DNA of 16,505 nt from a virus (lineage: Duplodnaviria; Heunggongvirae; Uroviricota; Caudoviricetes), in IMG/VR virus record IMGVR_UViG_2609459834_000006, positions 1 to 16,505 of that record, one strand, 5' to 3'. Numbering within the stretch: the first letter of the stretch is position 1; each line of letters opens with the position of its first letter. Made by a program: the position numbers and the translations under genes. The notes under the pieces were generated by a model that worked only from the letters and a program-made list of their open reading frames with translations, did not search any database and was not told where the DNA came from. Shown one piece after another: positions 3,119 through 8,403 of this stretch.

Positions 3119-3194
3119 GCCGATATAGCTCAGTTGGTAGAGCAGCGCATTCGTAATGCGAAGGTCGTAGGTTCGACTCCTATTATCGGCACCA
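3119..3194 (+). tRNA. thrW: tRNA-Thr (anticodon CGU), 76 nt with encoded CCA
   Basis: GCCGATATAGCTCAGTTGGTAGAGCAGCGCATTCGTAATGCGAAGGTCGTAGGTTCGACTCCTATTATCGGCACCA: acceptor stem GCCGATA/TATCGGC, D-loop AGCTCAGTTGGTAGAGC, anticodon loop with CGT, T-loop GGTTCGACTCC. Confidence 0.95.
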
Positions 3195-4897: not shown

Positions 4898-5115
4898 CAC
4901 AGTCCCCATTGTTTGTTCTTAAGTTCGATCTCCTCCTGGCAACTTGCACAAGTCCGACAACCCTGAACAGCTAGGCGTCTTCGCTCATCTATCGGATCGC
5001 CACACTCACAACAATGAGTTGCGGATACAGTCTGGTAGTTCAGACGACGCATTTTTATTGCTGTATTGCGCTGTAATTCTTCGATTTCTGATGCTGAATC
5101 AATGATGTCTGCCAT
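4897..5115 (-). CDS. TraR/DksA-family C4 zinc-finger protein, 72 aa
   Basis: MADIIDSASEIEELQRNTAIKMRRLNYQTVSATHCCECGDPIDERRRLAVQGCRTCASCQEEIELKNKQWGL: CxxC-x15-CxxC with an acidic/coiled N-terminus, typical of phage TraR-like proteins. Confidence 0.8.
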   Translation of the reverse strand: MADIIDSASEIEELQRNTAIKMRRLNYQTVSATHCCECGDPIDERRRLAVQGCRTCASCQEEIELKNKQWGL

Positions 5116-5164
5116 CTTTCATTAATCCCTGAATTGTTGGTTAATACGCTTGAGGGTAAATGCG

Positions 5165-5191
5165 AATAATAAAAAAGGAGCCTGTAGCTCC
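5165..5191 (-). terminator. Candidate rho-independent terminator (minus strand)
   Basis: Minus strand reads GGAGC-TACAG-GCTCC followed by TTTTTTATTATT (plus coordinates: stem 5177-5181/5187-5191, A-run 5165-5176). It lies just downstream of the ORF ending at 5214. Confidence 0.55.
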
Positions 5192-5213
5192 CTGATGATT
5201 TTGCTTTTCATGT

Positions 5214-5495
5214 TCATCGTTCCTTAAAGACGCCGTTCAACATGCCGATCGCCAGGCTTAAATGAGTCGGTGTGAATCCCATCAGCGTTACCGTTTCGCG
5301 GTGCTTCTTTAGTACGCTACGGCAAATGTCATCGACGTTTTTATCCGGAAACTGCTGTCTGGCTTTTTTGATTTCAGAATTAGCCTGACGGGCAATGCTG
5401 CGAAGGGCGTTTTCTTGCTGAGGTGTCACTGAACAAGCCCCATGCCGGCAAGCATAAGCACACAGAATATGAAGCCCGCTGCCAGAAAAATGCAT
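5214..5495 (-). CDS. Hypothetical small phage protein; start uncertain (93 aa from ATG 5495, or 71 aa from GTG 5429)
   Basis: Track ORF MHFSGSGLHILCAYACRHGACSVTPQQENALRSIARQANSEIKKARQQFPDKNVDDICRSVLKKHRETVTLMGFTPTHLSLAIGMLNGVFKER. No SD precedes ATG 5495, and the N-terminal 22 codons overlap an alternative-frame hydrophobic mini-ORF (see findings). Confidence 0.55.
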   Translation of the reverse strand: MHFSGSGLHILCAYACRHGACSVTPQQENALRSIARQANSEIKKARQQFPDKNVDDICRSVLKKHRETVTLMGFTPTHLSLAIGMLNGVFKER

Positions 5496-5505
5496 TCAGT
5501 GGTTG

Positions 5506-5697
5506 TCATACCTGGTCTCTCTCATCTGCTTCTGCTTTCGCCACCATCATTTCCAGCTTTTGTGAAAGGGATGTGGCTAACGTATGAAATTCTTCGTCTG
5601 TTTCTACTGGTATTGGCACAAACCTGACTCCAATTTGAGCAAGGCTATGTGCCATCTCAATACTCGTTCTTAACTCAACAGGAGATGCTTTGTGCAT
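5506..5697 (-). CDS. Hypothetical small phage protein, 63 aa
   Basis: [63 protein letters not shown], with a strong RBS (GGGAGG) 6-8 nt upstream of the ATG at 5697. Confidence 0.75.
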   Translation of the reverse strand: MHKASPVELRTSIEMAHSLAQIGVRFVPIPVETDEEFHTLATSLSQKLEMMVAKAEADERDQV

Positions 5698-5852
5698 ACC
5701 GCCTCCCGTTTATTATTTATCTTCTCAGCCAGCCGCTGTGCTTTCAGTGGATTTCTGATAACAGAAAGGCCGGGAAATACCCAGCCTCGCTTTGTAATGG
5801 AGTAGACGAAAGTGATCGCGCCTACCCGGATATTATCGCGAGGATGCTTCAT
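5670..5852 (-). CDS. Hypothetical small phage protein, about 60 aa, translationally coupled to exo
   Basis: [60 protein letters not shown]. The ATG at 5850-5852 overlaps the exo stop (ATGA). The track's alternative start is at 5858. Confidence 0.65.
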
Positions 5853-6529
5853 CGCCATTGCTCCCCAAATACAAAACCAATTTCAGCCAGTGCCTCGTCC
5901 ATTTTTTCGATGAACTCCGGCACCATCTCGTCAAAATTCGCCATGTACTTTTCATCCCGCTCAACCACGACATAATGCAGGCCTTCACGCTTCATGCGCG
6001 GGTCATAGTTGGCAAAGTACCAGGCATCTTTTCGCGTCACCCACATGCTGTACTGCACCTGGGCCATGTAAGCCGACTTTATGGCCTCGAAACCACCGAG
6101 CCGGAACTTCATGAAATCCCGGGAGGTAAACGGGCATTTCAGCTCAAGGCCATTGCCGTCACTGCATAAACCATCGGGAGAGCAGGCGGTGCGCATACTT
6201 TCGTCGCGATAGATGATCGGGGATTCAATAACATTTACGCCGGAAGTGAACTCAAACAGGGTTCTGGCGTCGTTCTCGTACTGTTTTCCCCAGGCCAGCG
6301 CTTTAGCGTTAACTTCCGGAGCCACACCGGTGCAAACCTCGGCAAGCAGGGTGTGGAAGTAGGACATTTTCATGTCAGGCCACTTCTTTCCTGATCGGGG
6401 CTTTGCTATCACGTTGTGAACTTCTGAAGCGGTGATGACGCCGAGCCGTAATTTGTGCCATGCATCATCCCCCTGTTCGACAGCTCTCACGTCGATCCCG
6501 GTACGCTGCAGTATAATGTCCGGTGTCAT
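5849..6529 (-). CDS. exo: Lambda-type exonuclease (Red alpha), 226 aa
   Basis: [65 protein letters not shown]... is near-identical to lambda Exo as recalled; 4-nt overlap with bet. Confidence 0.95.
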
Positions 6530-7311
6530 GCTGCCACCTTCTGCTCAGTGGCTTTCTGTTTCAGGAATCCAAGAGCTTTCACTGCTTCGGCCTGTGTCAG
6601 TTCTGACGATGCGCGAATGTCGCGGCGAAATATCTGGGAACAGAGCGGCAATAAGTCGTCATCCCATGTTTTATCCAGGGCAATCAGCAGAGTGTTAATC
6701 TCCTGCATGGTTTCATCGTTAACCGGAGTGATGTCGCGTTCCGGCTGACGTTCTGCAGTGTATGCGGTATTTTCGACAATGCGCTCGGCTTCATCCTTGT
6801 CATAGATACCAGCAAATCCGAAGGCGAGACGGGCACACTGAATCATGGCTTTATGTCGTAACATCCGTTTGGGATGCGACTGCCACGGCCCCGTGATTTC
6901 TCTGCCTTCGCGGGTTTTGAATGGTTCGCGGCGGCATTCATCCATCCACTCGGTAACGCAGATCGGATGATTGCGGTCTTTGCGGTAAATCCGGCATGTG
7001 CAGGATTCATTGTCCTGCTCAAAGTCCATGCCATCAAACTGCTGGTTTTCATTGATGATGCGGGACCAGCCATCAACGCCCACCACCGGAACGATGCCGT
7101 TCTGCTTGTCAGGGAAGGCGTAAATTTCTTTCGTCCACGGATTAAGGCCGTACTGGTTGGCGACGATCAACAATGCGATGAACTGCGCATCGCTGGCATC
7201 ACCTTTAAATGCCGTCTGGCGAAGAGTGGTGATCAGTTCCTGTGGGTCGACAGAATCCATGCCGACACGTTCAGCCAGCTTCCCAGCCAGCGTTGCGAGT
7301 GCTGTACTCAT
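6526..7311 (-). CDS. bet: Lambda-type single-strand annealing protein (Red beta), 261 aa
   Basis: [89 protein letters not shown]... matches lambda Bet. Confidence 0.95.
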
Positions 7312-7316
7312 CCGTT

Positions 7317-7613
7317 TTATACCTCTGAATCAATATCAACCTGGTGGTGAGCAATGGTTTCAACCATGTACCGGATGTGTTCTGCCATGCGCTCCTGAAA
7401 CTCAACATCGTCATCGAACGCACGGGTAATGGCTTTTTTGCTGACCCCGTGGCGTTGCAAATGATCGATGCATAGCGATTCAAACAGGTGCTGGGGCAGG
7501 CCTTTTTCCATGTCGTCTGCCAGTTCTGCCTCTTTCTCTTCACGGGCGATCTGCTGGTAGTGACGCGCCCAGCTCTGAGCCTCAAGACGATCCTGAATGT
7601 AATAAGCGTTCAT
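7317..7613 (-). CDS. gam: Gam (RecBCD inhibitor), short 98-aa GamS form
   Basis: [98 protein letters not shown] matches lambda Gam. The frame is closed upstream of this ATG, so no long GamL form. Confidence 0.93.
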
Positions 7614-7688
7614 GGCTGAACTCCTGAAAATGGCTGTGAAAATATCGCCCGCGAAATGCCAGGCTGATTAGGAAAACAGGAAAGGGGG

Positions 7689-7979
7689 TTAGTGATTCAG
7701 GCCGTTGCCGCGTCCGTCGAGAAAAACTTCCACGAGCAAGTCACGGGTATAAGTGCGCTCGATGCCGCGATGCAGATAAAGCCGTCCGCGTAAATTAGCT
7801 GATGCAGTCCAGGTACCATCTTTGTGTTTGACCAGCATTCCTGGCATGACCGCACCGCGATTAACGGTCTGCGTTCCGTAATGTTGATGAACCATAAAAA
7901 CTCCTGCCCGTAAGCTGGGCTGCTGAACATATAGAGACTTCTGCGCGTATTCAGGCGGTGGATGGCCGCCGGTTGTCAT
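7689..7979 (-). CDS. Hypothetical protein in the kil position (not lambda Kil or cIII), 96 aa
   Basis: ATG at 7977-7979 preceded by AAGGAGG; product [96 protein letters not shown]. The stop TAA coincides with where the lambda kil stop would be; upstream of it the sequence is unrelated to lambda kil as I recall it. Confidence 0.6.
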
Positions 7980-8164
7980 AACTAAGCCGCCTCCTTGAAG
8001 CGACTGAGGTATAAAGTGTTGTGTTGATTTCAGCTGGTCACACCGACGTTCACGCGTCCGTTTCACCCCTCGCACTCCCCGAAGCCTGCTGAAATTCAAG
8101 CTGCGGATCTAAGCGGTCATCGCAACGGTGAATCAGGTGGTTGCCGTATGATTGTGTTGTTGCG

Positions 8165-8215
8165 ATGAACTTATTTAAAACTATAGTTGTATTATCGTCA
8201 ACAACATAAGTTGTT
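8165..8215 (-). promoter_or_regulatory. Candidate pL promoter with OL operator (leftward)
   Basis: Minus strand reads TGTTGTTGACG-ATAATACAACTATAGTT-TTAAAT (-35 TTGACG, 17-nt spacer, -10 TTAAAT). This is nearly the same module as the pR/OR region (GTTGTTGACT-AAAAACAACCATAGTTT-TAATCT). TGGTTGT/ACAACCA half-sites recur through 8150-8260. Confidence 0.6.
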
Positions 8216-8341
8216 TTATTGGTTGTTTTAGATATAACTGGTTGTATTTGGGATGGATTTATTTTGTGACTTGAATTGCATAGCGATAACTGAAGCGAGG
8301 TTGTGGTGGTTTTTTGAACGGTGTGTGTGATGAGGGGAGGC

Positions 8342-8368
8342 AAAAGAAAACCCGGCACGGTGGCCGGG
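8342..8368 (-). terminator. Rho-independent terminator ending the cI/kinase/DUF3037 transcript
   Basis: Minus strand reads CCCGGC-CACCGT-GCCGGG followed by TTTTCTTTTG (plus coordinates: stems 8351-8356 and 8363-8368, A-run 8342-8350), 36 nt downstream of the DUF3037-like stop. Confidence 0.8.
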
Positions 8369-8403
8369 TTATTAATAAGGAATATCACATACAAAAATAA
8401 ATT

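Follow-up and report, generated by a model that had tools for sequence, protein, structure and literature searches.

A predicted KilR/phi80-type kil gene and a conserved leader element in the early-left operon of an Escherichia coli lambdoid prophage without N, nut or put

In the prophage described here, a lambda-type Red block (exo-bet-gam) gives way to another cassette precisely at the kil stop codon. This cassette runs from pL/oL through a leader of ~187 nt to a predicted KilR/phi80-type kil gene and replaces the whole lambda stretch that begins with kil, continues with cIII, ea10, ral and N, and ends at nutL. The window, by which we mean the whole stretch of 16,505 nt that was analyzed, contains the entire pL operon from its promoter to the attachment site, and the region controls early-left expression in a lambdoid prophage of the Lambda_4A7 / Perceval / PhiR5_1 type, which is very common in E. 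coli. The cassette documents a clean non-orthologous swap, in which two unrelated Kil genes end at the same stop codon. It also bears on the wider matter of how lambdoid phages without a recognizable N deal with their early terminators: N, nut and put are all excluded here, and a specific 123-nt candidate, found in about 40% of complete E. coli genomes, has been identified in the leader.

The prophage is integrated at tRNA-Thr (CGT) (3119–3194), next to proB and proA, and an IS1 InsA-like ORF lies upstream of proB at 146–421. The early-left operon is read on the minus strand and contains, in the order of transcription, kil, gam, bet, exo, homologs of orf60a, orf63 and orf61, a TraR/DksA-like gene, a DUF4222 homolog, xis and int. 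To the right of this operon lie pL/oL, the genes for a DUF3037 protein and a HipA_2 kinase, cI and cro, followed after cro by a CII-like gene, O, P, ren, a gene for a 250-aa DNA-binding protein and an IS256-family transposase gene. The CII-like activator (11194–11733) belongs to PHROG 163 (E=3e-67); this conflicts with the PGAP name for the gene in an E. coli genome with the same module, ‘toxin YdaT domain-containing protein’. The 402-aa ORF that follows the 250-aa DNA-binding gene (15271–16479) is presumably an IS256-family transposase, judging by eye; it may interrupt the nin/Q side, in which case the prophage may be defective here. The HipA_2-family kinase (250 aa) and DUF3037 protein (280 aa) are encoded between cI and pL (8404–9980, minus strand) by genes with a 19-nt overlap, in the slot occupied by rexAB in lambda. 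The pair matches the PADLOC candidate defense system PDC-M66 A/B with E about 1e-15, is annotated in PhiR5_1 as HipA toxin and HipD antitoxin, and has a similar counterpart in the same slot of a Citrobacter locus (L020).

When the window was compared by blastn with lambda 27500–38500, a single lambda-like block was found: positions 4920–7695 (minus strand) correspond to lambda 30418–33193 with 96.8% identity over 2777 bp and comprise the orf61/63/60a homologs, exo, bet, gam and the gam-kil spacer. The right end of the block is the lambda kil stop codon (lambda 33187–33189, window 7689–7691), and the block reaches 4 nt into the 3′ end of a 96-aa ORF. The sequence common to the two phages ends with ...GGGGGTTAGTGA, and divergence is complete beyond it. 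An earlier sequence-only reading of this DNA had placed a mosaic breakpoint at the kil stop, had called exo, bet, gam and ~75 nt of the gam-kil spacer lambda-like, and had proposed that the lambda genes kil and cIII, with all that follows as far as N and nutL, are replaced. The blastn comparison bears this out in full: the breakpoint is exact, the ~75 nt from gam to the lambda kil stop fall within the block, and no lambda match is present across the replaced stretch. The gam gene is a 98-aa short form (7317–7613, minus strand; Pfam Gam, E=1.4e-64). It is open only in this form, whereas 138 aa are annotated in the lambda record, and the start of the lambda long form would fall past the recombination breakpoint.

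The sole lambda match outside the block is the terminator after rexB, at window 8337–8373 (89%). The terminator scan placed an intrinsic terminator there at 8349–8370 (minus strand), which ends the cI-HipA_2-DUF3037 operon and is the equivalent of lambda t_imm; it is 89% identical to lambda 35794–35829 and is conserved in other genera. Lambda, phi80, HK225 and prophages of several genera all have a conserved copy of this segment (AACCCGGCCACCGTGCCGGGTTTTCTTTTG), which looks like another mosaic junction sequence.

The 96-aa ORF to the right of the breakpoint was confirmed, from ATG 7979 to TAA 7689–7691 on the minus strand. The sequence-only reading had noted that the ORF does not resemble lambda Kil and had offered it as a candidate novel host-interfering protein. 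The dissimilarity is real: lambda Kil gives no BLASTP alignment to the ORF at E<=100, and a Pfam search of the ORF returned no match. The novelty did not survive. PHROG 294, ‘Kil protein for bacterial septation inhibition’, matches the ORF with E=1.2e-38 across profile positions 4–80 of 83, and the NCBIfam KilR model NF008465/PRK11354, ‘FtsZ inhibitor protein’, matches it with E=4.4e-17 and 61.9 bits, a score below the curated cut-off of that model (92 bits). Phi80 Kil is 40% identical to the product over 67 residues (E=3e-15). By tblastn, proteins 100% identical to the ORF are encoded in phages PhiR47_2, Lambda_4C10, 1W and PhiR34_1, Kil of HK225 and mEp237 is 68% identical, and the counterparts in phi80, HK639, Rac and Stx phages are 34–40% identical. 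Deposited phage records label the identical proteins Kil, the Perceval record reads ‘phage phi80 Kil homolog’, and the PGAP name for the 68-aa core is ‘phage encoded cell division inhibitor protein’. The HMM search that the sequence-only reading had proposed thus aligned the ORF to a known Kil family, an outcome that by its own account tells against novelty. A host-takeover protein with no kinship to any Kil, which the lack of lambda Kil similarity and of a Pfam domain might have suggested, is refuted by these family matches, by the identity to phi80 Kil and by the existing Kil annotations, and we give it virtually no credence.

The comparisons therefore identify the ORF as a predicted KilR/phi80-Kil-type gene that is already known and common. 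A segment comprising the leader and the 5′ part of the gene (window 7890–8195) is present in 2231 of 5426 complete E. coli genomes with 95–99% identity. Its product would be a relative of Rac KilR rather than an equivalog, in a distinct subfamily. The gene shares with those of Rac KilR and phi80 Kil a product of ~70 aa and, within the early-left operon, a position after pL and ahead of the recombination genes; it is located at 7895–7689, directly upstream of gam-bet-exo, and the homology is clear. It differs from them in being only 34–40% identical to the studied members, in being the first gene after pL, and in having a reading frame that, together with a short ORF upstream, can give a fusion of 96 aa. 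Rac KilR is an inhibitor of division and elongation (PMC12482147), and Rho/NusG limit kilR expression (PMC5793797). From its homology to these relatives, this Kil is predicted to block FtsZ-dependent division. Lambda Kil (47 aa) lies in the same genomic slot with the same stop codon adjoining gam, and its reported target pathway, FtsZ ring assembly (PMC3961180), would through the KilR homology be shared; the two proteins nonetheless have no detectable sequence similarity, which makes the exchange a non-orthologous replacement.

Several observations place the start of the conserved protein downstream of ATG 7979. The PHROG 294 and NCBIfam KilR profiles align only from residue 20–29 of the 96-aa form onward. 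The match starts at residue 22–33 in 14 loci of other genera (Kluyvera, Leclercia, Citrobacter, Enterobacter, Klebsiella, Raoultella and others), where the gene encodes 67–68 aa with a start that corresponds to ATG 7895. RefSeq and PGAP annotate the 207-nt form, and conservation of the 68-aa core extends to about a dozen other genera. By these comparisons, the conserved gene is the core from ATG 7895 (7689–7895, minus strand), rather than the form from ATG 7979; the core has an AGGAG RBS of its own at 7905–7901, and its variable sites are distributed 4/7/21 over the three codon positions. The stretch 7896–7979 (minus strand) holds a short ORF (MTTGGHPPP...) and a linker, in frame with kil here to give the 96-aa ORF. 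In many other phages the short ORF of the ATG 7979 type stops after 10–33 codons, ahead of the next gene, and in some relatives that carry the conserved leader segment a frameshift or stop separates it from the kil core. Because the short ORF ends early elsewhere and the core alone is conserved, the 96-aa product is an in-frame fusion of the short upstream ORF and Kil; this form may be synthesized. The strong AAGGAGG RBS that the sequence-only reading had assigned to the 96-aa ORF is present as a sequence at 7996–7990, but it makes up the loop and 3′ arm of a stable conserved hairpin, AGUCGCUUC-AAG-GAGGCGGCU (7985–8005, minus strand; dG -12.8, z -3.4), whose stem is invariant and whose loop varies (AAG, ACC, AAC) across >150 loci; the assignment thus holds for the motif and fails for its role, the core starting at ATG 7895. 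These results correct an annotation on which public records vary between 68, 96 and 139 aa: the gene encodes, by homology, a KilR-type division inhibitor of 68 aa.

The Shine-Dalgarno-sequestering hairpin belongs to a junction module at window 7945–8014 (minus strand), which also contains the MTTGGHPPP short ORF (polyproline) and an internal GGCGG/CCGCC hairpin, a layout that resembles a translational attenuator. The module is also found in L031, L033, L066, L112, L125 and about 150 other loci, and in most phages it directly follows a strong intrinsic terminator, with kil or other early-left genes coming next. Across genera, the sequence just ahead of the kil RBS contains a common motif, AACGTTCCGCCAGCCTGGCGACAAGGGCAAA (leaders of L014, L016, L017, L020, L011 and L010); the window copy, GTTCAGCAGCCCAGCTTACGGGCAGGAG (7899–7926, minus strand), has diverged and lies inside the 96-aa reading frame.

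The position of pL is fixed by its operators. A pattern search for ACAAC-N4-GTTGT palindromes with <=1 mismatch found five in the window, against an expectation of 0.66 (0/200 shuffles reach five), and all of them fall at 8177–8214 or 10801–10892. These clusters are oL and oR. Since operators cluster at these two sites only, pL is placed at 8173–8214 (minus strand) together with two overlapping oL operators (8177–8190 and 8201–8214); its -35 is TTGACG (8201–8196) and its -10 TTAAAT (8178–8173), with a 17-nt spacer. Transcription is predicted to start near A8166 and to produce a leader of ~187 nt, in good agreement with the 185 nt given by the sequence-only reading. The predicted pL transcript opens with a 5′-terminal stem-loop (CAUCGCAAC...GUUGCGAUG; 8118–8167, minus strand) that is far more stable than expected (dG -14.7, z -4.5, 0/200 shuffles), and its pairs are retained in 46–48 of 48 variants.

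The sequence-only reading had seen no N-like antiterminator and no obvious boxA/boxB nutL, and a wider search gave the same answer. Apart from an in-frame extension of kil that lacks support, the leader contains no credible ORF. None of the pL-operon ORFs is N-like, each being assigned to a known non-N family, and the annotation of the complete 4A7 genome lists no N, although a Q-like gene is present. The pL leader has no boxA within 3 mismatches and no boxB-type hairpin. No Rfam family matched the leader, even at E<=10; HK022 and HK639 did not match either, which indicates that Rfam has no put family. We therefore used a put covariance model (R1) built from 18 aligned put RNAs, including HK022 putL, HK022 putR and HK639 putL, with the putL set reduced to unique variants, an alignment in which covariation of stem II was confirmed. 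With filters off, the best match of this model in the window had E=0.5 and lay elsewhere, with none in the leader, and the complete 4A7 genome gave no match, nor did the PhiR5_1 and Perceval loci. A put-like RNA in the leader, suggested by a short likeness to put stem I (GAAACGGACGCG...CGUCGG in place of GAACGGCGCG...CGUCGG), was rejected on this ground, as the likeness scored nothing. The absence of N, nut and put in phages of this type is a solid result.

What an early-left transcript would meet in this operon divides into two parts. From pL to exo there are only weak terminator-like sites, and because of this the expression of kil and Red should need no factor. Beyond this stretch come a hairpin at 5788–5766 with a poor U-tract and then the canonical intrinsic terminator of the pL operon, which lies at 5193–5168 (minus strand; an 8-bp stem and UUUUUUAUUAUU; dG -10.2, z -3.3), upstream of the traR-like gene, xis and int, and inside the segment that is 96.8% identical to lambda. 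In lambda, N-modified polymerase reads through such terminators. Because this one precedes xis and int, induction-dependent excision and xis expression are unexplained without a mechanism of read-through; partial read-through, a promoter not yet seen or an antitermination activity borne by the leader might each account for them.

The leader segment that might bear such an activity is element X, 123 nt at 8030–8152 (minus strand), which occupies the putL slot and carries no coding signal: no codon periodicity was detected in it. X is nearly invariant. Copies that are without exception 95–99% identical occur in at least 120 viral contigs and in 16 deposited phages of E. coli, in combination with at least three operator/immunity types, and in the core of X 8 of 74 sites vary, as against 21 of 68 third codon positions of kil. 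Two groups of put-bearing contigs show where X sits. The first (L026, L120, L128 and L133) has essentially the oL/pL of the window and the same first ~15 nt of transcript, followed by putL. In the second (L031, L033, L112 and L125), putL, lying 60 nt upstream of the downstream hairpin/short-ORF junction, leads directly into ...AATCAAACGACTTTCATACCTCAGTCGCTTCACCGAGGCGGCTTAGTTATGACAACCGGCGGCCATCCACCGCC, the homolog of window 8029–7951. These contigs show that the sequences on either side of X are ones that border putL in other phages. When loci were scanned for the downstream hairpin, X lay upstream of it in 90, putL directly upstream in 4 and something else in 60, the last class including three X variants (L290, L305 and L307) that lack the exact 18-mer used for classing. 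In ~55 of these 60 loci the upstream gene ends in a strong intrinsic terminator, for example GACCCGCCACGGCGGGTTTTTT followed by CATACCTCA, and one (L274) has neither a terminator nor putL.

As an RNA, X is less distinctive. The folding energy of its core (z -0.66) is no better than that of shuffled sequence. In the helices that can be drawn, among copies that are 95–99% identical, five changes are wobble-compatible and three disruptive; compensatory pairs are lacking, and 29 of 48 variants disrupt one of the drawn hairpins. Among the known copies there are no diverged relatives. By blastn, X has no homology to the leaders of kil-first prophages in other genera, which contain another element, Y, instead. 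Nor was a second copy found in the pR operon; a 15-nt match between 8105–8091 and 11115–11129 was dismissed as probably due to chance (E about 0.6), the latter site lying at the 3′ end of cro and largely within its coding sequence. The two sites of this match (14/15; CGCAGCTT[G/A]AATTTC; 8091–8105 on the minus strand and 11115–11129 on the plus strand) are both in the sense of transcription. A published prophage sRNA, svsR, is unrelated and sits at the 3′ end of cI. Put RNA has two stems and makes polymerase pass terminators in cis, an activity that rpoC zinc-binding-domain mutations block. The residues that matter in put are the stem I core, U28, G35 and the GGCAAU face of stem II (PMC9378689). 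X has neither the 5′ duplex of put nor U28, G35 or the stem II face, and gives no match to the put covariance model; its likeness to HK022/HK639 putL, beyond the short resemblance to stem I, is one of setting: X comes next after pL, the same junction follows it, and the phage, like the put phages, has no N.

We consider it probable, and the likeliest account of these data, that the early-left operon is N-independent by architecture and that its leader is a regulatory 5′ UTR for a toxic gene. On inactivation of CI, pL would fire near A8166 and yield a transcript that opens with the stable 5′ stem-loop. Kil would be translated from ATG 7895 as a protein of 68 aa, and maybe also in its 96-aa form from the hairpin-buried start at 7979, and by homology to Rac KilR and phi80 Kil would block FtsZ-dependent division. 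Transcription from pL would meet no strong terminator before gam-bet-exo and would continue directly into these genes, so that Red could be made without N, and the leader would most simply be a 5′ UTR that stabilizes the message and limits translation of the toxic gene. Such an arrangement recalls N-independent lambda derivatives of the nin5/byp type, which express early genes without N as the intervening terminators are missing; those are laboratory mutants of the pR operon, whereas the present one is a natural cassette with an equivalent effect for pL, at least as far as exo. It also keeps the operon logic of lambda N/nutL, in which pL is followed by a leader and the early-left genes, with terminators before xis and int, but the N gene is absent, the leader contains neither boxA nor boxB, and the lambda segment with N, tL1 and the genes between N and kil has no counterpart. 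Against the architectural account stand the canonical terminator upstream of xis and int, the KilR score below the curated cut-off, and a leader of which ~123 nt are conserved well beyond the needs of a simple UTR, exactly in the putL slot.

This last point raises an alternative in line with the non-N antitermination that the sequence-only reading had thought possible: X, by itself or together with the 5′ stem-loop, would be a new antiterminator RNA that acts in cis as put does in HK022, the nascent leader binding the elongating polymerase and carrying it past the terminator at 5193 and beyond. We regard this as a tentative proposal that is more probably wrong than right. It is favored by the cassette-like exchange of X and putL between the same pL and the same junction, by the near-invariance of X across immunity types, and by the lack of N, nut and put in a phage whose lambda-derived terminator precedes xis and int; the carriers 4A7, Perceval and the PhiR phages are, moreover, deposited as complete genomes, several with a named host strain. 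The indistinct folding of the core, the lack of covariation, of diverged relatives and of a pR copy, and the absence of the residues and stem II that define put all speak against it, and the same slot does not prove the same function: HK022 Nun occupies the slot of lambda N yet does the opposite job. X does lie next to pL, on its downstream side, in a lambdoid phage that lacks N, but this agreement with put is one of position only. That X should represent another class of antiterminator RNA, acting in cis like put but unrelated to it in structure, or the loading site of an antitermination factor, is accordingly a minority view, if one with consequences, since it would explain how phages without N and put pass lambda-type terminators to reach xis and int. 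For such a phage a 2025 survey of lambdoid phages suggested only “maybe put-like” (PMC12315714). We think it rather less likely that an unrecognized trans-acting factor, whether host Nus factors acting through a boxA-like sequence or a phage protein, uses the leader as a nut-like loading site. The leader does contain a poor boxA-like CGCUUAGAU at about 8116–8108, related phages have leaders that join put stem I or element Y to a boxA, and a perfect rrn-type boxA (CGCTCTTTAACAA; 11137–11149, plus strand), the only perfect GCTCTTTAACAA in the window, lies in the cro-cII spacer at the position equivalent to nutR. No boxB hairpin follows that boxA, however, and it belongs to this immunity module, being absent from the sibling phage 4A7, which nevertheless carries X; in the pR operon it may provide Nus-factor-dependent protection from Rho. 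The pL leader itself has neither a boxA within the limit of the search nor a boxB, and the non-N family assignments of the pL-operon ORFs leave little room for a phage factor. Least plausible among the explanations of antitermination, and very improbable in our view, is that the in-frame extension of kil from TTG 8099 (136 aa) is an N-like arginine-rich domain fused to Kil. The frame is open, a 139-aa Kil is annotated in the Perceval record, and the peptide, which reads ...RLRGVRGVKRTRERRCDQLK..., superficially resembles an arginine-rich RNA-binding motif; yet none of the in-frame starts has a Shine-Dalgarno sequence, variable sites are distributed 7/4/7 by codon position rather than 4/7/21 as in the kil core, and the extension is missing from other genera and uncovered by any family match. 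It was rejected for its lack of codon periodicity and of an RBS, and the architectural account with a regulatory 5′ UTR remains the one we prefer.

Further leader types were seen in related phages. Element Y is a two-hairpin element of ~65 nt just downstream of the early promoters of many enterobacterial lambdoid phages, with the consensus GCGAACAGGCAGGACGCCCACGAAGUAGCCGCCUGGGGCAUAUGAAGUCCAGGAUGAUUCGC; it was seen in related loci only (L010, which is SEN34, at about 2875–2940; L014; L020; and L317–L435) and has no Rfam match. Clear compensatory changes are present in both its outer helix and its second hairpin. Downstream of Y follow a nut-like hairpin with a boxA, or putL, or a kil leader. 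The leaders of two viral contigs (L079 and L096) are hybrids: an rrn-type boxA (...CATGCGTCGGAACCGCTCTTTAACAATCTGG) comes directly after put stem I and takes the place of put stem II.
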